Shown here: one piece after another, positions 7,209 to 49,825 of the stretch
How positions within the stretch are numbered: the stretch's first letter is position 1
How the letters are laid out: each line of letters opens with the position of its first letter
Source: Oceanicaulis sp.
GTDB taxonomy: Bacteria; Pseudomonadota; Alphaproteobacteria; Caulobacterales; Maricaulaceae
Assembly (NCBI RefSeq): GCF_965249665.1
Contig: NZ_OZ252247.1
Coordinates: 2,339,282-2,403,281, forward strand
Reading direction: 5' to 3'
Length of the DNA: 64,000 bases
Made by a program: the position numbers and the translations under genes
The notes under the pieces: generated by a model
Told to the model about the DNA's origin: nothing
What the model saw: only the letters and a program-made list of their open reading frames with translations
Databases searched by the model: none

Positions 7209-7892
7209 TTAGCGCTTGCCGGTGTTCGCCATTTCAGCGCGCTCGACTTCCACTTGCGGAAGACGATTGTCGAGATAGGTTTTCACCGACGCTTCGAGCG
7301 GATCAAGGTGATCGGTGAACAAATGGCCTGCGCCCTTGATGATGTCATGGGTCATGATGATGCCCTTCTGGGTGCGCACCTTGCTCATGGCGCGCTCCAT
7401 CTCATCATGAGGCACGATCGCGTCCGCTTCCCCGTGTGCAATCAGACCAGATGCCGGGCAGGGCGCCAGGAAGCTGAAATCATACATGTTTGTGGGCGGC
7501 GACACAGAGATGAAGCCGGCGATCTCCGGGCGGCGCATCAAGAGCTGCATGGCGATCCAGGCGCCGAAGGAATGACCGGCGACCCAGCAATAGGATGCAT
7601 TGGGATTATGCGCCTGCGCCCAGTCGAGCGCGGTCGCAGCGTCTGACAGCTCACCCAGGCCCTGATCATAGGTTCCCTGGCTGCGGCCGACGCCGCGGAA
7701 ATTGAACCGCAGCACGGAAAACCCGCGCTCCTTGAACTCGTCATACATCATGGTGCTGACCGGCGTGTCCATATGACCGCCGCCCCGCGGGTGAGCATGC
7801 AGGATCAGCGCTACCGGAGCGCCAGGAGTCTTGGACGGGCTGTATTTGCCTTCAAGGCGGCCGGCCGGGCCGGGAATGATAACGTCGGGCAT
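7209..7892 (-). CDS. Alpha/beta hydrolase fold protein
   Basis: 227 aa with a nucleophile elbow GHSFGAW. The overall pattern matches COG2945-type serine hydrolases. Confidence 0.8.
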   Translation of the reverse strand: MPDVIIPGPAGRLEGKYSPSKTPGAPVALILHAHPRGGGHMDTPVSTMMYDEFKERGFSVLRFNFRGVGRSQGTYDQGLGELSDAATALDWAQAHNPNASYCWVAGHSFGAWIAMQLLMRRPEIAGFISVSPPTNMYDFSFLAPCPASGLIAHGEADAIVPHDEMERAMSKVRTQKGIIMTHDIIKGAGHLFTDHLDPLEASVKTYLDNRLPQVEVERAEMANTGKR

Positions 7893-8125
7893 GGAAAGCT
7901 TACGGGTCCTGCTTCAATTTCCCTAGCTCTGCACTCAGGAATTGATTTCCAGGTGGTGCAAGGGGTATGCGAAAACCAAGTCCTAATACTTGACTCTCGC
8001 GCTGGGGATACTAGCTCCCTAATGCGCGAGCGATGTCAGACAAACGGATCGGCCTCTTAACACGGTCGGGCCGCACAATGCGAGCGCATCGCGCTTATTT
8101 GTACGGGTTAGCCAAGGATAATGTC

Positions 8126-9746: not shown

Positions 9747-11258
9747 ATGCCTGCGGTCAAGGAAACCATCGAAGACGTCCGTCAGCTGGAATCTGACAAG
9801 TATAAGTACGGCTTCACCACCGAGATCGAGCAAGAGCGTGCGCCCAAGGGGCTGAGCGAAGACACTGTGCGCTTCATCTCGGCCAAGAAGGGCGAGCCGG
9901 ACTGGCTGCTGGAATGGCGTCTTGAAGCGTTCAAACGCTGGACGCAGATGGCTGAGCCTGATTGGGCGAAGGTCGGTTATCCGCCCATCGACTATCAGGA
10001 CGCGTACTATTACGCTGAGCCTAAAGACGCTAAAAAGTACAAAAGCTTGGATGATGTTCCTCAGGAGTTGCTAGACACCTACAAGAAGCTTGGCATTCCG
10101 CTGAAAGAGGCGGAAGTCCTCCTCGGCGTGGAGGGCGCGGACGCCAGCGCCGCCGATGCGCGCACAGAAGGCTCGCAGCGTAAGGTGGCCGTGGATGCGG
10201 TGTTTGACTCTGTCTCCGTGGTGACGACCTTCAAGGAAGAGCTGTCCAAAGCTGGCGTAATCTTCATGCCTATCTCTGAGGCGGTTCACGAATACCCCGA
10301 GCTTGTGAAGAAGTATCTCGGCTCGGTCGTGCCGGTGACGGACAATTTCTTCGCCACGCTCAACAGCGCGGTCTTCTCTGACGGCTCTTTCGTCTATGTG
10401 CCCAAGGGCGTGCGCTGCCCGATGGAGCTGTCGACCTACTTCCGGATCAACGCCGAAGGCACCGGCCAGTTCGAACGCACGCTGATTATAGCGGATGAGG
10501 GCGCCTATGTGTCCTATCTTGAAGGCTGCACCGCGCCCATGCGCGATGAAAACCAGCTGCACGCCGCCGTGGTGGAGCTCGTCGTGCTCGATGACGCCGA
10601 GATCAAATACTCCACAGTTCAGAACTGGTGGCCCGGCGACGCAGATGGCAAGGGCGGGGTCTATAACTTTGTCACCAAGCGCGCCGATTGCCGCGGACGG
10701 AACTCCAAGGTCAGCTGGACCCAGGTCGAGACGGGTTCCGCGATCACCTGGAAATATCCGTCCTGCGTGCTGAAGGGGGATAACAGCCAGGGTGAGTTTT
10801 ATTCTATCGCCGTGACCAATGGCCGTCAGCAGGCCGATACCGGCACCAAGATGATCCATCTGGGTCGCAATACGAAGTCGCGCATCATTTCCAAAGGCAT
10901 TTCGGCGGGCAAGTCCGACCAGACCTATCGCGGGCTTGTCTCCGTGCATGGCAAGGCCGAAGGGTCGCGCAACTTCACCCAGTGCGACAGCTTGCTGATC
11001 GGCGATACCTGCGGCGCACACACTGTGCCTTATATCGAGTGCAAGACGCCCAAGGCGACGCTGGAGCATGAGGCGACCACCTCCAAGCTCTCAGAAGAAC
11101 AGCTCTTCTATGCGCGCCAGCGCGGACTTGATGAAGAAAGCGCTGTGGCGCTTCTCGTGAACGGCTTCTGCCGCGAAGTGCTGCAGGAGCTGCCCATGGA
11201 ATTCGCCGTGGAAGCCCAGGCGCTCCTGAAAGTCTCGCTTGAGGGGAGTGTGGGTTAA
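9747..11258 (+). CDS. sufB: Fe-S cluster assembly scaffold SufB
   Basis: 503 aa, highly conserved SufB sequence (YKYGF, ...KYSTVQNWW..., HEATTSK...). Confidence 0.95.
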
Positions 11259-11261
11259 GCG

Positions 11262-11579
11262 ATGACGCAGTACTGGTTTGCACGCCGCCGCGCTGAAGAT
11301 ATCGGCAAGCCTGCCTTCAAGGGGCGGTTCTATCCTATCGCCTGGCAGGGCTGGGCTGTCGTGGGCGTCTTTCTGGGCGCGATGGCTCTGGGCGTACTGT
11401 TATGGATTGAGAGTGCGAGCGTTGGCGCCGGTCTGGTGATGAGCTTGGTCCCCTTTGTCATGCTGACGGCGTTTGGCGCGGGCATGATCATGCTGGCGAC
11501 CGTCAGCAAGGGCGACCCGAACCATACCGTGGCGCAGTACCGCTCGGGTGAAGTCAGACAGGGTGGCGAGCATGGCTAG
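11262..11579 (+). CDS. Hypothetical small membrane protein inserted in the suf operon
   Basis: 105 aa with two clear hydrophobic helices. Starts 4 nt after the sufB stop and overlaps the next gene's ATG by 8 nt. Confidence 0.55.
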   Translation: MTQYWFARRRAEDIGKPAFKGRFYPIAWQGWAVVGVFLGAMALGVLLWIESASVGAGLVMSLVPFVMLTAFGAGMIMLATVSKGDPNHTVAQYRSGEVRQGGEHG

Positions 11580-44612: not shown

Positions 44613-44637
44613 GGAACCGGATATGGGCGAGGGCGTT
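44613..44637 (+). promoter_or_regulatory. EcfG-type promoter GGAAC-N16-CGTT upstream of the DUF1328 operon
   Basis: Reads GGAAC cggatatgggcgaggg CGTT. Confidence 0.7.
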
Positions 44638-44673
44638 GATTGGGGGACTGTTTAATGTTGAAGGAGCTACACC

Positions 44674-44850
44674 ATGTTGAGACTGGCCCTTGGATTTTTC
44701 GTCGTCGCCCTGATCGCGGCCCTCTTCGGTTTTGGCGGCATTGCAGCCGGCGCGGCCTCAATCGCGCAAGTTCTGTTCTTTGTCTTTCTGGTGCTGTTTG
44801 TGGTGTCGCTGCTGTTTGGCGCCCTGCGTGGACGCTCACCCCGAGCCTGA
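44674..44850 (+). CDS. DUF1328 (UPF0391/YtjA-like) small membrane protein
   Basis: 58 aa, below the ORF-track cutoff. My translation is [60 protein letters not shown] aaggag lies 8 nt upstream. Confidence 0.85.
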
Positions 44851-44867
44851 ACGTAGAGCCTTTATGA

Positions 44868-44899
44868 GAAGTCTGGCGGCGTAACAGTCGCCAGACTTC
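44868..44899 (+). terminator. 11 bp hairpin after the DUF1328 gene (attenuator/terminator, no U-tract)
   Basis: gaagtctggcg-10 nt-cgccagacttc. Confidence 0.35.
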
Positions 44900-44933
44900 A
44901 TCTGACAGACTTCAACAAAAAAGGATGTTGATC

Positions 44934-45155
44934 ATGAAACAGTTTGCCCCGCTGTTTATCGCCCCGTTTTTTATGGCTGCTGCGGCCTGCTCAGACGGTC
45001 CGGCTGAAAACGCTGGCGAAGACGTTGATGAGGCGATCGAGGACGTAACTGGCGAAGAGCAAGGTACGTTCGAGGAAGCTGGTGAAAACCTGGATGACGC
45101 GGCTGATGACGCCGAAGACGCCATCGAGGACGCGACCGACGAACCGCCTCGCTAA
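44934..45155 (+). CDS. Small highly acidic lipoprotein, entericidin-like N-terminus
   Basis: MKQFAPLFIAPFFMAAAAC (lipobox) is followed by AGEDVDEAIED...AEDAIEDATDE. The second ATG is preferred because of SD spacing. Confidence 0.6.
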   Translation: MKQFAPLFIAPFFMAAAACSDGPAENAGEDVDEAIEDVTGEEQGTFEEAGENLDDAADDAEDAIEDATDEPPR

Positions 45156-45203
45156 ATTTGGTTTTGCGACCATCATCCCCTTCAAAACACAAAGGAGAGC
45201 GAC

Positions 45204-45488
45204 ATGGCACGCGCCACTGCTAAGTCCGATGTTACGACTGAAGAGCTGAAATCTGATCTGGATGCGCTGCGTGCGGATATGGATCAGTTGGTCGGCGACT
45301 TGTCCAAGATCGTCCAGCAAAGCGGGGAATCGGGTGTCAAAGCCGGACGTTCCGCAATCGAGGACGGCTTGGACGCTGCAGAAGAAGCGCCTGACCAATT
45401 GCGTGAGCTCATTCGTGAGAACCCGCTTGGCGCCTGCGGCGCCGCGATTGGCGCAGGGTTTCTCGGCGCCCTGTTGATGCGTCGCTAG
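45204..45488 (+). CDS. DUF883 (ElaB/YqjD-like) membrane-anchored stress protein
   Basis: 94 aa with LKSDLDALRADMDQLVGDL, and a C-terminal ENPLGACGAAIGAGFLGALLMRR anchor. SD aaaggaga upstream. Confidence 0.8.
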   Translation: MARATAKSDVTTEELKSDLDALRADMDQLVGDLSKIVQQSGESGVKAGRSAIEDGLDAAEEAPDQLRELIRENPLGACGAAIGAGFLGALLMRR

Positions 45489-45498
45489 GAGACGCACT

Positions 45499-45861
45499 GT
45501 GAACGCGCTTCTGATAGCTATCGCGCTCATCGGGCCTGTACTCGGCGCAGTATTCGCCACCCATGCGGGATGGAGCTGGGCGTCAAACCAGTACTCCCCA
45601 TGGGTGGCCAGCGCCCTGGTCGGCTCTATTTATGCATGCCTGGGTTCAATCGCCGCGGCGACACTGTTGTGGAGAGCCAAGGCGAGCAAACCACCGGCTC
45701 AAGCGCCCTCGGGCGCCGCGTCGCCTCTGACGCTGGTTGAGACCGCTATGAAACGTAAACCGCTGCAAACCACGGCAGCCTTGATGGGTTTGGGCGCGCT
45801 TTTGGCTCGAAAGCCAAAACTGGCTCTAACAGCCCTCTCAAAGTTTGCGGCCTCCAGCTGA
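45499..45861 (+). CDS. Hypothetical membrane protein downstream of the DUF883 gene
   Basis: 120 aa, GTG start, 2-3 hydrophobic helices. It sits where YqjE/YqjK-type partners usually sit, but I see no clear motif. Confidence 0.5.
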   Translation: MNALLIAIALIGPVLGAVFATHAGWSWASNQYSPWVASALVGSIYACLGSIAAATLLWRAKASKPPAQAPSGAASPLTLVETAMKRKPLQTTAALMGLGALLARKPKLALTALSKFAASS

Positions 45862-45872
45862 AGGGTCTTCCC

Positions 45873-46676
45873 TTGTCAAAAAAGAATGATCAGGAGCTGC
45901 GCGCCAAGCGATTAGCGGCGCGCAGCGAAATTGCGTCTAAAACGCTTTATTCCATCATTGCTGAGACGGGCAAAGAGGAGCTTCTGCGCCCCTCCAGCTC
46001 TTTATTGTATTCCGCGTTGACAGCCGGACTCGCCATGGGCGCGTCCGTTTTGCTGATGGGCGCAATCGAGCGCGCTGTCGGAGATGCTGACTGGAGCTAT
46101 CTGGCGATTGCTGCCGGATACCCGGCGGGCTTTTTGCTGATCGCAATGGCGCGCATGCAATTGTTCACGGAAAACACGCTGACGGCGGTTCTGCCTGTGA
46201 CCAAGCATCGGCGCTGGAGATCTGTACGCTTGTTGATGCGGCTTTGGGCAATTGTCTTGTTCGGCAATCTGGTGGGGGCCGTCGTGATCGGTTCAGTGCT
46301 CAGTCATGTGACCGACCCAGAGCTGTTTGACGCGATGGTCACGGCATCCTCTCACATCATGCATCGCGACATAGCGGGCAATTTCATTGCTGCGTTGCCA
46401 GCCGGCTTCCTGATCGGGCTGATGGCCTGGTCATTACCCGGCCTGCCCTATGAAAAGCTCGGGACGGTGTTCATTGTGACTTATCTGGTGGGCGCTGGCG
46501 GCTTTCCGCACATCGTAGCCGGCACCGTGGAAGCGACCGTCCTGATCGTCGCGGGCAGTTGGGGCGTTGGCGACGCAATCAGCTTCATCATTCCCGTTCT
46601 CATCGGCAATACTTTGGGCGGTGCGGCGCTGTTTGCAGGCTTGGCGTACGGCCAGGTGCACGAAGAAATCGAATAG
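45873..46676 (+). CDS. Formate/nitrite transporter (FNT) family protein
   Basis: 267 aa, TTG start. Six TM helices with LFTENT and ...GGFPHIVAG... FNT-like loops. Confidence 0.75.
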   Translation: MSKKNDQELRAKRLAARSEIASKTLYSIIAETGKEELLRPSSSLLYSALTAGLAMGASVLLMGAIERAVGDADWSYLAIAAGYPAGFLLIAMARMQLFTENTLTAVLPVTKHRRWRSVRLLMRLWAIVLFGNLVGAVVIGSVLSHVTDPELFDAMVTASSHIMHRDIAGNFIAALPAGFLIGLMAWSLPGLPYEKLGTVFIVTYLVGAGGFPHIVAGTVEATVLIVAGSWGVGDAISFIIPVLIGNTLGGAALFAGLAYGQVHEEIE

Positions 46677-46689
46677 ACGGGTTCAGGTC

Positions 46690-46714
46690 GGAACGTATTG
46701 CGACCTGAGGCGTT
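46690..46714 (+). promoter_or_regulatory. EcfG-type promoter GGAAC-N16-CGTT with no downstream ORF
   Basis: Reads GGAAC gtattgcgacctgagg CGTT, starting 14 nt after the FNT stop codon. Confidence 0.7.
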
Positions 46715-46720
46715 GTTTCG

Positions 46721-46832
46721 ATGTCCCTGGCCTAAAGGGACGCCAAGAGTGTGTTGCGAGGTTGATCCTCCCCCTGACCGAACCTCGCACAACGCAAATA
46801 GAGCCGTCCTCTTCTTGAGGGCGGCTTTTGCG
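46721..46832 (+). ncRNA. Candidate EcfG-dependent small RNA (GsrN-like architecture)
   Basis: Three elements follow the promoter. Hairpin 1 is gtccct-ggcctaa-agggac (46723-46741). Hairpin 2 is tgcgaggtt-[gatcctccccctgaccg]-aacctcgca (46755-46789), with a C-rich 17 nt loop. The terminator is gccgtcct-cttcttg-agggcggc-tttt (46803-46829). No credible ORF. Confidence 0.55.
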
Positions 46833-47063
46833 TTTCTGCTGATAGCGCCAACTGTGTTCTCGCGCTGATGCGCTCAGATGCGGTGTTCAGCTTGGCTTCA
46901 GGGTTGGCCAGGGGATCTAACTCGCTCACCCTTGCTCAAGCCTCGCAAGCGTCAAAGCATCGATCGCTCTCACAGCGACCCAATTCATCTTGCAAGAGCA
47001 AGGAGGCCGATGGCTCCTGGCGGCGTCACTCAGCAACTGTTGCAGATCATGGCGGTGAGCACA

Positions 47064-47093
47064 CAAAAAAAGGGGCGCGCCGAAGCGCGCCCC
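47064..47093 (-). terminator. Intrinsic terminator of the PRC-barrel gene
   Basis: Minus strand reads ggggcgcgc-ttcg-gcgcgcccc followed by tttttttg. Confidence 0.8.
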
Positions 47094-47123
47094 CAGATAA
47101 AAGGTTGGTCAGACCTTAGAGAC

Positions 47124-47849
47124 TTAGCGGCCGTCAAGATAGGCGCCGGCGTTGACCGGAGTCTCTTCGAGCATCTCGACATCTTCCGACGTCAGATCGG
47201 CTGAGACAGTCCAGCCAGCTTCAGTGGTGTAACCAAGCTCAAGAGCGTCAAAGTCAACGCGGCCGACATTGCCGCCGAAGCCGATGAACCCGCCATCACG
47301 GATGATGGCGTACTCGGTGTCGCCTTGCGCAGTGAACTCCACGTCTTCGATATGGGCGATGGTTTCGCCCTGGGCGTTCACGATGGCAGATCCGGTCAGA
47401 TCGCTGTAAAACAGATCGCCGTCTTCACGTTGGTCTTCGACAGAGACGGTAAACGGGCTGTTCTCAATGACCTCGGCGTCATCCAGCTGATCGTCTGTGA
47501 TGGACGCGGTCACGACTAGCTCGCCTTCCGCACCATAAGACAGGTTTGCAGCGATTGTGGACACTGCAACTTCCTCGTCAAACAGTCCCAGGAAGCCGCC
47601 GCGGGAGATAATCAGCGCTTCGGGGTCGCCTGCATCGCTCATCCGGATGTCCGTGATGGCGGAGGCGCCGTCTGCGTATTCGAGATCCGCGCCGACAACG
47701 TCGGACGCCTTGATGGTGTCCGCCATCATGGCGGCTTCGACATGGGACTCCGTTTCCATGTGTGCTGTCGCATCCTGGGCTTGCGCCGTTGCGAGAGCGG
47801 TGGTGGAAACCAGAGCGATCGAGGTGGTCAGCATCAGCTTGTTCAACAT
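47124..47849 (-). CDS. Secreted PRC-barrel domain protein (two repeats)
   Basis: 241 aa with a signal peptide ...ALATAQAQ. Two PRC-barrel-like segments are present (...VVGADLEYADGASAITDIRMSDAGDPEALIISRGGFLGL... and ...LTGSAIVNAQGETIAHIEDVEF...AIIRDGGFIGFGG...). SD aaggaga upstream. Confidence 0.75.
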   Translation of the reverse strand: MLNKLMLTTSIALVSTTALATAQAQDATAHMETESHVEAAMMADTIKASDVVGADLEYADGASAITDIRMSDAGDPEALIISRGGFLGLFDEEVAVSTIAANLSYGAEGELVVTASITDDQLDDAEVIENSPFTVSVEDQREDGDLFYSDLTGSAIVNAQGETIAHIEDVEFTAQGDTEYAIIRDGGFIGFGGNVGRVDFDALELGYTTEAGWTVSADLTSEDVEMLEETPVNAGAYLDGR

Positions 47850-48051: not shown

Positions 48052-48825
48052 TTATTCAGCCGCAACAGCTTCCTTGTCGAAGAAGAACAGCGCCTGGCTC
48101 ATTGTGGCTGTGACGGTTTCGGGCATGAAGGGCTTGGTCACCAGATAGGTCGGTTCCGGTTTCTCGCCGGTCAGCAAGCGTTCGGGATAGGCGGTGATGA
48201 AGATCACCGGCAGGTTCATCTCGCCCAGTATATCTTTCACGGCGTCGATGCCCGAGCTGTCGTCCGCCAACTGAATATCAGCGAGAACGAGCCCGGGCGG
48301 GGATTTTTGGGCCAGCTCCACGGCCTGGTCGCGGGTTCGAGCCACGCCGGTGACCGTATGGCCGGCATTCTCCACGATAGCTCGCAGATCAAGGGCGATC
48401 ACAGGTTCGTCCTCAATGATCATCACGCGAGTGGCGAGCCCGGCGTTCAGCTCTTGTTGTGCTGAGACCAGCAGAGCCTGAGCCTCATCGTCGCCGATGC
48501 GCAGAATGGAGGCCACATCCTCGATGGAGAACCCTTCGACGGACGTGAGCAGCATGACTTGTCGGGCTTTGGGTGTGACATGCGACAGCGGGTTTTGGCT
48601 GTCTGAGGGATCGGTGACGTCAAGCTGGCTGTTCCAGCACGCGTGGAACAACTGGAAGAGTGCGACATGAGGCGGTAAATCCCGTCCCAGTTCCTCATTG
48701 CCTTCAACAGCCGCCTCCAGACAGGCGCGCACATGGGCGTCACCGCTTTGTTGTGATCCCGTCAGGATGCGCGCATACCGGCGCAGGTAGGGAATATGTG
48801 ACCGTATCGCTGTAACAAAACTCAT
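48052..48825 (-). CDS. phyR: Anti-anti-sigma response regulator PhyR (sigma-like N-domain + receiver)
   Basis: Start preferred at MSFVTAIRSHIPYLRRYARILTG (EcfG-like sigma region). The C-terminal receiver is VMIIEDEPVIALDL...LVLADIQLADDSSGIDAV...KPF. Confidence 0.9.
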   Translation of the reverse strand: MSFVTAIRSHIPYLRRYARILTGSQQSGDAHVRACLEAAVEGNEELGRDLPPHVALFQLFHACWNSQLDVTDPSDSQNPLSHVTPKARQVMLLTSVEGFSIEDVASILRIGDDEAQALLVSAQQELNAGLATRVMIIEDEPVIALDLRAIVENAGHTVTGVARTRDQAVELAQKSPPGLVLADIQLADDSSGIDAVKDILGEMNLPVIFITAYPERLLTGEKPEPTYLVTKPFMPETVTATMSQALFFFDKEAVAAE

Positions 48826-48860
48826 AGTCGGGCTCTCCCCACAAAAAATACCAAGCAACA

Positions 48861-48885
48861 AACGAACAACGATCCAAACGGTTCC
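48861..48885 (-). promoter_or_regulatory. EcfG-type promoter GGAAC-N16-CGTT for phyR
   Basis: Minus strand reads GGAAC cgtttggatcgttgtt CGTT. Confidence 0.75.
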
Positions 48886-48987: not shown

Positions 48988-49206
48988 ATGGCAATGTCTG
49001 AGGATAAAAACAGGGCTGCCGCCAAGCTAGACCCTGCGCTGCTGCAGCGGACTCGCAAGCAGCAGGAAAACCTTGGCGCTGGATTGCGCAAGATGTTTGA
49101 TTCCGTGGTCGAAGAGGGCGTGCCGGACGCTTTTGAAGACCTTCTTGACCGGCTGGAACAAGGCGAGTCCGAGCGCGCCGACGGCAAGGATGACTCTCAT
49201 GAGTAA
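48988..49206 (+). CDS. nepR: Anti-sigma factor NepR
   Basis: 72 aa with ...LGAGLRKMFDSVVEEGVPDAFEDLLDRLE, the NepR signature. The stop overlaps the ecfG start. Confidence 0.8.
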   Translation: MAMSEDKNRAAAKLDPALLQRTRKQQENLGAGLRKMFDSVVEEGVPDAFEDLLDRLEQGESERADGKDDSHE

Positions 49207-49825
49207 GTCCGGTTCAGACGGCGCTGGCCTAACGGCCTCCGAACTCATGCCTCAGGCGGAGTTTCGAAAAGAACTAACCGAAGCCATTCCTCACATGCGC
49301 GCCTTTTCACGAAGTCTGACAGGCGATGCAGCAAGCGCGGACGATCTGGCTCAAGACGCCATGATGAAAGCCTGGTCTGCACGCGACAAATTCAAAGCTG
49401 GAACGAACTTTCGCGCTTGGGTCCTGACCATCGTGCGCAATCAGTTCTACTCCAACAAACGTCGATCCTGGCGCCAGGCGGATTGGGATCAGGAGCTTGC
49501 GGAGCGAACTTTGCCGGCTGTCGACAACCAGGAACAGGTTGTAGCTCTGGACGAATTAAGACGTGGTCTTGCTGAATTGCCCGAAGATCAGCGTGAAGCG
49601 CTCATACTGGTCGGAGCGGGCGGCTATTCCTATGATGAAGCGGCGGAGATTTGCGGTTGCGCGACAGGAACCGTGAAAAGTCGTGTTTCGCGGGCGCGTC
49701 TGGCTTTGGAAGGCATCATGAAAGCCGGACCGGCCGCTAAGGCAAACGCAGATGGCGTCGCCGCCTCTGACGCGGTGGACACGCTGCTTGGTCATGTCAG
49801 CGACCTGGCAGAGCAGGCGCGCTGA
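49199..49825 (+). CDS. ecfG: ECF sigma factor EcfG (SigT-type, ECF15)
   Basis: Start preferred at MSKSGSDG (ATG 49199). Region 2 is DDLAQDAMMKAWSARDKFKAGTNFRAWVLTIVRNQFYS and region 4 is YDEAAEICGCATGTVKSRVSRAR. Confidence 0.9.
   Translation: MSKSGSDGAGLTASELMPQAEFRKELTEAIPHMRAFSRSLTGDAASADDLAQDAMMKAWSARDKFKAGTNFRAWVLTIVRNQFYSNKRRSWRQADWDQELAERTLPAVDNQEQVVALDELRRGLAELPEDQREALILVGAGGYSYDEAAEICGCATGTVKSRVSRARLALEGIMKAGPAAKANADGVAASDAVDTLLGHVSDLAEQAR

Follow-up and report, generated by a model that had tools for sequence, protein, structure and literature searches.

A predicted EcfG-driven small RNA with a cytosine-rich loop beside the general stress response genes of Oceanicaulis

The stretch of DNA analysed here, 64 kb from an Oceanicaulis species (Maricaulaceae, Maricaulales) and referred to throughout as the window, holds a general stress response (GSR) island. 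Between the gene for a transporter of the FNT family and the response regulator gene phyR lies an element, at 46690 to 46832 on the forward (+) strand, that is probably the gene for a trans-acting, base-pairing small RNA (sRNA) of the alphaproteobacterial GSR. The RNA would be about 110 nt long, would depend on the sigma factor EcfG, and would resemble GsrN of Caulobacter in its logic. Judged by its sequence, the element is a new family within a known kind of RNA, the GSR-linked, EcfG-driven sRNAs with C-rich loops. An earlier sequence-only reading of the window had singled out the same element as a candidate GsrN-like RNA, and several of its statements could be checked here by folding, comparison with relatives and database searches.

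The element opens with an EcfG-type promoter, 46690..46714 (+), that can be read directly: a -35 sequence GGAAC at 46690-46694, a 16-nt spacer and a -10 sequence CGTT at 46711-46714. The open reading frame (ORF) of the FNT gene (45873-46676) stops with TAG at 46674-46676, and 13 nt separate this stop codon from GGAAC. The sequence-only reading had placed a perfect GGAAC-N16-CGTT promoter at 46690-46714, starting 14 nt past the FNT stop, and that is where it is found. EcfG presumably activates this promoter. The predicted sRNA occupies 46721..46832 (+), about 110 nt, with its 5' end at about 46721 +/- 3 and its 3' end in a U-rich tail; from the sequence we infer that the element is transcribed, that its transcription depends on EcfG, and where exactly the transcript begins and ends. 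The strand was assigned from the promoter, the U-tail and the G-U pairs, which fit only the + strand.

The predicted transcript is unusually stable. Its minimum free energy is -50.7 kcal/mol, compared with -31.9 +/- 3.7 kcal/mol for 200 dinucleotide shuffles of 46721-46832 (z = -5.09), none of which folds as well. Three elements had been proposed for an RNA of about 110 nt, and all three are recovered at the same positions. Hairpin 1, 46723..46741 (+), stands at the extreme 5' end and has 6 bp (46723-46728/46736-46741) and a 7-nt loop. Stem-loop 2, 46749..46795 (+), consists of a 9-bp core, 46755-46763/46781-46789, with an outer extension, 46749-46752/46792-46795, and presents a 17-nt apical loop, GAUCCUCCCCCUGACCG, at 46764..46780 (+). 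Inside this loop is the C-tract CCUCCCCC, 46767-46774, the putative seed. The third element is a GC-rich terminator, 46800..46836 (+), made of a 12-bp hairpin (46800-46811/46817-46828) and the U-rich tail UUUUGCGUUU.

The same element is found at the syntenic site in other Oceanicaulis. It is present in Oceanicaulis sp. HTCC2633, LC35 and MMSF_3324 (L001-L003) and in the metagenomic contigs L201/L202, L203 and L205, which were reached through their FNT homologs; together with the window copy these give a family of seven distinct sequences. The PhyR protein of the window is 87–88% identical to that of three Oceanicaulis genomes. Hairpin 1 was misplaced by MAFFT alone and the alignments were rebuilt with a covariance model, which gave alignment A9 for the seven sequences. 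With a covariance model of the element (R1), the window copy reaches 84.5 bits (E = 1e-17), and the scores of the six relatives range over 70–126 bits. Folded one by one, all seven members give the same three hairpins (z from -4.2 to -7.75).

It had been suggested that conservation of the stems and of the C-tract be looked for in relatives, and both are conserved across the seven sequences, with compensatory changes in the stems. Standard pairs make up 95.5% of cells in alignment A9, and changes on both sides are seen in 8 of its 29 pairs. Such changes affect five of the 11 modelled pairs of stem 2 and two of the six pairs of hairpin 1, where 97.6% of cells are paired, and all 12 pairs of the terminator are formed in every member. 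No shuffle out of 500 reaches the A9 values, and sliding the 3' partners as a control leaves 42–54% of cells paired with at most 2 pairs changed on both sides. The loop is conserved as well: CCUCCCCC(C)UGAC is invariant in 6/7 members, and the exposure claimed for the C-rich loop is borne out by the predicted probability that the C-tract loop is unpaired, 0.78 in the window and 0.74–0.89 as family means. The loop of hairpin 1 is also C-rich in 6/7 members, the window copy being the exception.

Is the element only the 3' untranslated region (UTR) and terminator of the FNT operon, with an inactive box and a structure that acts in cis, for example in mRNA stabilisation? No terminator intervenes between the FNT stop codon and the element, which means that operon and sRNA have their terminator in common, and the operon has an EcfG box of its own at 44613. 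One relative also fits this explanation. L204 is the closest relative by FNT (97% protein identity) and has the same PRC-barrel neighbour, yet of the element its segment 3230-3404, equivalent to window 46677-46832, has only the terminator hairpin; the -35 box, hairpin 1 and the C-loop are absent, which indicates that the terminator also serves the FNT operon. The other members argue the opposite. In all seven, GGAAC and CGTT are invariant and exactly 16 nt apart while the spacers are unrelated in sequence, and hairpin 1 always starts 8 nt past CGTT, a pattern expected of a used promoter and transcription start site rather than of a UTR. Moreover, a terminator role leaves the invariant unpaired C-tract unexplained. 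We consider a purely 3' UTR origin improbable. What L204 reveals is a natural presence/absence polymorphism of the sRNA module, in which promoter, hairpin and seed are separable from the terminator and not universally kept. The promoter had been called an orphan, and this description holds in part: it is a separate box without an ORF, but it is not fully orphan in that its terminator is shared with an upstream operon that is itself EcfG-driven.

A coding role can be set aside more firmly. A 4-codon ORF starts with an ATG at 46721, and mechanically called ORFs overlap the region, so the element might encode a small protein or be the leader or attenuator of a downstream gene. No ORF is conserved, however. 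The ATG is missing from L001, L002, L003 and L203 and the indels between relatives are not multiples of three, which together exclude a coding role. Downstream on the + strand, neither of the ORFs 46868-47119 and 46878-47204 matches a Pfam family or falls in sequence conserved in relatives, in agreement with the statement of the sequence-only reading that no credible ORF follows; in L203 the gene that comes next is phyR, in convergent orientation. A small protein or a leader is thus very improbable. The non-conserved sequence downstream of the element runs into the convergent PRC-barrel gene.

The obvious comparison is with GsrN (CCNA_R0081) of Caulobacter crescentus, which is transcribed from a sigma-T/EcfG-type promoter of the form GGAAC-N16-CGTT (PMC5869019). 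GsrN usually adjoins the GSR locus, in most genomes just downstream of phyR, and its expression is EcfG-dependent; it is processed endonucleolytically to a stable 5' isoform, and an effect of Hfq has been described (PMC5869019; bioRxiv 10.1101/344820). Its C-rich loop, which it needs for function, base-pairs with G-tracts of the katG and osrP leaders; GsrN activates katG and osrP, represses other targets and forms coherent feed-forward loops with sigma-T (PMC5869019; bioRxiv 10.1101/344820). The Oceanicaulis element likewise has a promoter of the GGAAC-N16/17-CGTT type directly upstream, with a layout identical to that of the gsrN promoter, lies close to phyR, nepR and ecfG on the downstream side of phyR, and exposes a cytosine-rich loop in the 5' part of an RNA of about 100–110 nt that ends in an intrinsic terminator.

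Homology is another matter. The supplement of PMC5869019 supplied the C. crescentus gsrN sequence and promoter, and 68 GsrN homologs (31–115 bits) were collected in a metagenome scan with the gsrN promoter and loop pattern. From these we built a single-sequence GsrN model (R2) and a 68-homolog family model (R3). BLASTN and nhmmer searches with GsrN against the window and 80 loci found nothing on the element, and R2 with default filters gave no match there. With filters off, R2 scored the element in the window at 7.9 bits (E = 4.6, rank 27 of 56) and R3 at 11.5 bits (E = 1.3, rank 10 of 45), under chance matches; R3 reached 17.0 bits (E = 0.13) on L001 and about 9.5 bits on a second Oceanicaulis clade described below. 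The reciprocal search of 80 gsrN loci with R1 gave at best 17.6 bits (E = 0.13). No homology in sequence, or in sequence and structure together, was therefore detected, and the GsrN-like label survives in its logic (promoter, C-loop, terminator and locus) but not as a statement of descent.

The two RNAs also differ in build. The GsrN 5' domain is a stem, GGAGGCGGCG/CGCCGCCUCC, around GACGCCCCCCCGACUUGAG and a small internal hairpin. This domain (GGAGGCGGCGACGCCCCCCCGACUUGAG and the internal hairpin) is nearly invariant across the 68 homologs, the share of the loop in this conservation being imposed by the search pattern, and the linker and terminator vary. The Oceanicaulis RNA has no such domain. 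The C-tract of GsrN sits in an internal loop of the long 5' stem enclosing the small hairpin, whereas that of Oceanicaulis is the apical loop of hairpin 2, on a stem UGCGA(A)GG/CCU(U)CGCA with no internal hairpin and with an extra, separate hairpin 5' of it. A 'UGCGAAGG' stem common to both RNAs was considered and rejected: the UGC of GsrN lies upstream of nucleotide 1 in the published probe numbering, and the family consensus there is GGAGG. Among the 40 metagenomic gsrN homologs whose loci were examined, 24 have phyR inside the fetched locus; gsrN is typically 0.5–0.9 kb downstream of phyR and co-directional with it in the cases read, whereas the Oceanicaulis element is convergent with phyR and set at the 3' end of an operon. 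As a separate observation, the GsrN homologs L106, L110, L123, L127 and L147, from metagenome contigs L081-L160, appear without the canonical 3' half in the model alignment.

Could the element nonetheless be a true ortholog of Caulobacter GsrN that has diverged past detection by sequence and structure models and been rearranged, with the C-loop now apical, a 5' hairpin gained and the orientation to phyR inverted? The two share promoter type, a site downstream of phyR, a similar length and a terminator; both flank the C-rich loop with GAC (GACGCCCCCCCGAC in GsrN, GA(C/U)CCUCCCCCUGAC in the element); Maricaulales and Caulobacterales are neighbouring orders; and the sub-threshold R3 scores on L001 and the window fall exactly on the element. 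Against this stand the uniformly negative BLASTN, nhmmer, R2, R3 and reciprocal R1 searches, the absence of the near-invariant 5' domain and the convergent orientation, which genuine gsrN does not have. In addition, the second Oceanicaulis clade has a different element, which points to turnover rather than slow divergence. Orthology is, in our judgement, unlikely. The sequence comparisons suggest that the element is an analogue of GsrN, or a relative diverged beyond recognition, and they do not support strict membership of the GsrN family.

Known RNA families do not account for the element either. At the gathering threshold of Rfam 15 the sole match in the window is a tRNA. In a scan of 46500-47150 at E <= 10, only Scr6925, a Streptomyces sRNA, overlaps the element, at 21.4 bits against a threshold of 50, and Rfam gave no match on the element in relatives or on the elements of other lineages. 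By the features commonly used for bacterial trans-acting sRNA genes (a promoter, no ORF, covarying structure and a terminator) it nevertheless qualifies, albeit with an interrupted U-tract.

Several alphaproteobacterial sRNAs carry anti-Shine-Dalgarno loops of the CCUCCUCCC type, namely the 'cuckoo' RNAs CcsR1-4 of Rhodobacter, alpha-r14 (NfeR1) and alpha-r8 (MmgR/SuhB). Their C/U-rich anti-Shine-Dalgarno-like motifs are found in hairpin loops, often several per RNA; they are linked to stress and are presumed to act at ribosome-binding sites. Their promoters are of other types (RpoHI/HII, LysR-type) and they are not known to be linked to phyR. The element resembles these RNAs in its loop but, unlike them, has an EcfG-type promoter and is linked to phyR. 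There is also an architectural likeness to DapZ and MicL of enterobacteria, Type-I sRNAs embedded in 3' UTRs with their own promoters. As in those cases, a dedicated promoter is found where the upstream coding region ends, and the sRNA and the upstream mRNA use one terminator; the likeness ends there, since the Oceanicaulis promoter is just past the stop codon rather than inside the coding sequence and the sigma factor differs.

Tien et al. (2018, Figure 9; PMC5869019) used position and promoter to predict GsrN-like RNAs in Rhizobiaceae, Brucella, Rhodopseudomonas and Bradyrhizobium. The element agrees with those predictions in being intergenic near the GSR locus, with a near-consensus EcfG site and an exposed C-rich loop. 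It differs in belonging to another sequence family, from an order, Maricaulales, that was not examined in that work, and in having the support of covariation.

How might such an RNA work? Under stress, PhyR would free sigma-EcfG, encoded 2.3 kb from the element, and sigma-EcfG would fire the promoter at 46690-46714. Transcription would start about 7 nt past CGTT, directly at the 5' hairpin, which at the extreme 5' end may protect the RNA. The conserved C-rich CCUCCCCCUGAC, presented in the apical loop of stem 2, would be the seed, pairing with G-rich, Shine-Dalgarno-like stretches of mRNA leaders and thereby altering translation or stability. CCUCC is an anti-Shine-Dalgarno core, and this favours occlusion of ribosome-binding sites. 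The RNA would end at the intrinsic terminator, which would also terminate the EcfG-driven DUF1328-DUF883-FNT operon; this operon being EcfG-driven, the same RNA segment could also come from its 3' UTR. The terminator and the A/U-rich linker could bind Hfq. The outcome would be a post-transcriptional layer on the EcfG regulon, probably with feed-forward loops, as for GsrN in Caulobacter. By analogy with GsrN, base-pairing would be the mode of action, regulation might run in either direction, and Hfq may be involved.

Some observations weigh against an EcfG-dependent, base-pairing sRNA. A target search within the window returned no specific target, and the leaders of its EcfG-driven genes have only generic ribosome-binding-site complementarity to the seed. 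L203 carries a shortened C-tract, GCCCCUGACC, and L204 implies that the RNA is dispensable in at least one lineage. A terminator hairpin with a U tail had been predicted and is present, but a strict terminator scan did not list this + strand hairpin because its U-run is interrupted. Finally, the seven family members are close relatives and the covariation statistics are accordingly modest in power. Of the duplexes themselves, the best non-self one (57154) was rejected as a target, lying inside a 1342-aa ORF, and the ribosome-binding site of phyR, GGGGAGAG, is complementary to the seed at -13.6 kcal/mol, again a generic complementarity.

This generic complementarity also bears on whether the RNA acts other than by base-pairing in trans, either as an anti-Shine-Dalgarno mimic that titrates the ribosome or a protein, or in cis, as antisense made by read-through of a weak terminator into the convergent PRC-barrel and phyR genes. 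The loop GAUCCUCCCCC resembles the 3' end of 16S rRNA, which makes its complementarity to ribosome-binding sites generic. The U-tract is imperfect, and the elements of L203 and of the second Oceanicaulis clade abut the 3' end of phyR in convergent orientation. On the other side, the terminator hairpin is strong, with its 12 pairs fully formed in every member. The distance to phyR ranges from 90 nt to 1.2 kb and an extra gene intervenes in some genomes, so that antisense overlap is not conserved, and no repeated protein-binding motif is evident. We give little credence to these modes of action, and pairing in trans remains the preferred reading.

The neighbourhood of the element is rich in EcfG sites. 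In the window, GGAAC-N15-17-CGTT occurs 14 times where 1.28 copies are expected, and none of 100 shuffles reaches 14. The sites are at 2082, 29988, 41384(-), 42362(-), 44473(-), 44613, 46690, 47917(-), 48885(-), 48905, 51535, 53774(-), 53788 and 58414(-). Between 41 and 54 kb most boxes stand ahead of ORFs, those of a PRC-barrel paralog, a 178-aa ORF, Dps, the DUF1328 operon, the PRC-barrel gene, phyR, nepR-ecfG, a small lipoprotein, an ATP-grasp-like gene and a small membrane protein. These boxes make the segment a dense island of the EcfG regulon, and the correct orientation of most of these ORFs relative to their boxes indicates that the motif is functionally used in the region.

The gene order is MscS, Dps (-), the EcfG box at 44613, the DUF1328-to-FNT operon (+), the element (+), PRC-barrel (-), phyR (-), nepR-ecfG (+) and an HWE kinase (+), which agrees with the earlier placement of the element inside the GSR locus. 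The upstream operon (44613-46676, +) comprises DUF1328, a 73-aa ORF, DUF883, a 120-aa membrane protein and, as its final gene, the FNT-family transporter, 45873..46676 (+; Pfam PF01226, E = 4.6e-39); the box at 44613 precedes the DUF1328 gene. This layout is seen in L201-L205 and is conserved in all contigs of the clade to which the window belongs (clade 1). An FNT channel would accordingly be a member of the general stress regulon. The phyR gene, 48052..48861 (-), encodes the anti-anti-sigma response regulator of the GSR (Pfam PhyR_sigma2, PhyR_sigma-like and Response_reg), and its 3' end is 1.2 kb from the element, convergent with the sRNA. The ECF sigma factor gene ecfG is listed at 49073..49825 (+; Pfam Sigma70_r2 and Sigma70_r4_2). 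The listed ORF probably starts inside nepR; NepR and a 208-aa sigma factor are called at the equivalent position in L203 and L205. On the opposite strand, at window 47065-47116(-), weak Rfam matches (SorY, sbrA, suhB, TarB and others), all far under threshold, pile up. They were discarded because what they mark is simply a strong intrinsic terminator, GGGGGCGCGCUUCGGCGCGCCCC followed by U7, that belongs to the PRC-barrel gene.

Elements of similar design, but of other sequence, are found beside phyR in other lineages. We scanned 80 phyR loci for an EcfG box followed within 150 nt by a C-rich 8-mer. The combination was present for 41 of 273 boxes (15%), compared with 4.3% of random windows, an excess that supports the sRNA reading at the level of the class, and the cases group into lineage-specific families. 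In a second Oceanicaulis clade (L004-L006), whose PhyR is 68–69% identical, there is a different EcfG-driven element of about 165 nt directly downstream of phyR and convergent with it (L004 ~11140-11300(-), L005 ~11400-11575(-), L006 ~11160-11329(-)). It combines a 5' hairpin with a 16-bp GC stem that carries the loop CUCUCCGUCAGCCCCGCCCCCGGA, further C-rich stretches and a terminator, and it is missed by the clade-1 model and the GsrN models alike. No such RNA was found at the distant FNT homologs (53–60% identity; L206-L208), which are outside GSR loci, and in Maricaulis (L007) every EcfG box near phyR precedes an ORF.

In 23 Sphingomonas loci there is a strongly conserved element of about 100 nt with an EcfG promoter and two hairpins, the loops of which hold the poly-C tracts CCUUUUGCCCCCCCGCUC and AACCCUCCCCCCCCCGGU, the second varying from 6 to 12 C. 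Both stems show compensatory changes and there is no Rfam match. The EcfG boxes start at ~7830-7937(-) in L008, 7849(-) in L013, 7761-7922(-) in L019 and 7937(-) in L025, with 19 further loci, about 2 kb from phyR. In the sole Sphingomonadales genome that Tien et al. examined, that of Erythrobacter litoralis, they reported no gsrN-like gene (PMC5869019). Other elements occur in Rhizobium (L078 12162(-), L080 12160(-)), Kiloniellaceae/Denitrobaculum (L023 12129(-), L024 7332(-)), Bauldia (L062 11277(-)) and a Sphingomonadaceae genome (L066 4572(-)). All have C-rich loops and terminators at most about 2 kb from phyR, each with its own sequence, and the one in Rhizobium L078/L080 is probably the Rhizobiaceae 'GsrN-like' RNA of Tien et al. 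R1 detects none of the other-lineage elements convincingly. Its best hint is in L019 (21.7 bits, E = 0.04), the only match that coincides with an EcfG-driven element; the remaining weak matches elsewhere fall in coding sequence and were dismissed as chance. A literature search found no published description of these RNAs.

These families raise the question of whether the PhyR-NepR-EcfG module has a fourth, near-universal component, an EcfG-driven sRNA with C-rich, anti-Shine-Dalgarno-like loops. We offer this only as a tentative idea, which is rather doubtful as it stands. In such a case the RNA would be kept beside phyR across Alphaproteobacteria while rapid turnover of its sequence made each lineage appear to have its own family, in Caulobacteraceae (GsrN), the two Oceanicaulis clades, Sphingomonas, Rhizobium and Kiloniellaceae. 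The families could stem from one ancestral RNA or from repeated reinvention under the same design constraint. The RNAs might also feed back on translation of the GSR regulators; in Caulobacter the nepR-sigT mRNA co-purified with GsrN.

The advance is incremental, in that Tien et al. (2018) had predicted EcfG-regulated sRNAs to be widespread; that prediction is extended here to Maricaulales and Sphingomonas. The seven-member alignment can be used for comparative target prediction with the genome sequences of the relatives, and L204, a close relative naturally without the RNA, provides a ready comparison. The features shared by these elements also offer a way to annotate such RNAs when homology searches find nothing. 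If the prediction holds, a design would persist even without conservation of sequence, one in which an EcfG promoter drives an RNA with one or more exposed C-rich loops and a terminator, encoded beside phyR. If the element is expressed as predicted, the marine stalked bacteria of the Maricaulales would also have the post-transcriptional arm of the GSR, for which GsrN in Caulobacter is so far the sole experimental demonstration.

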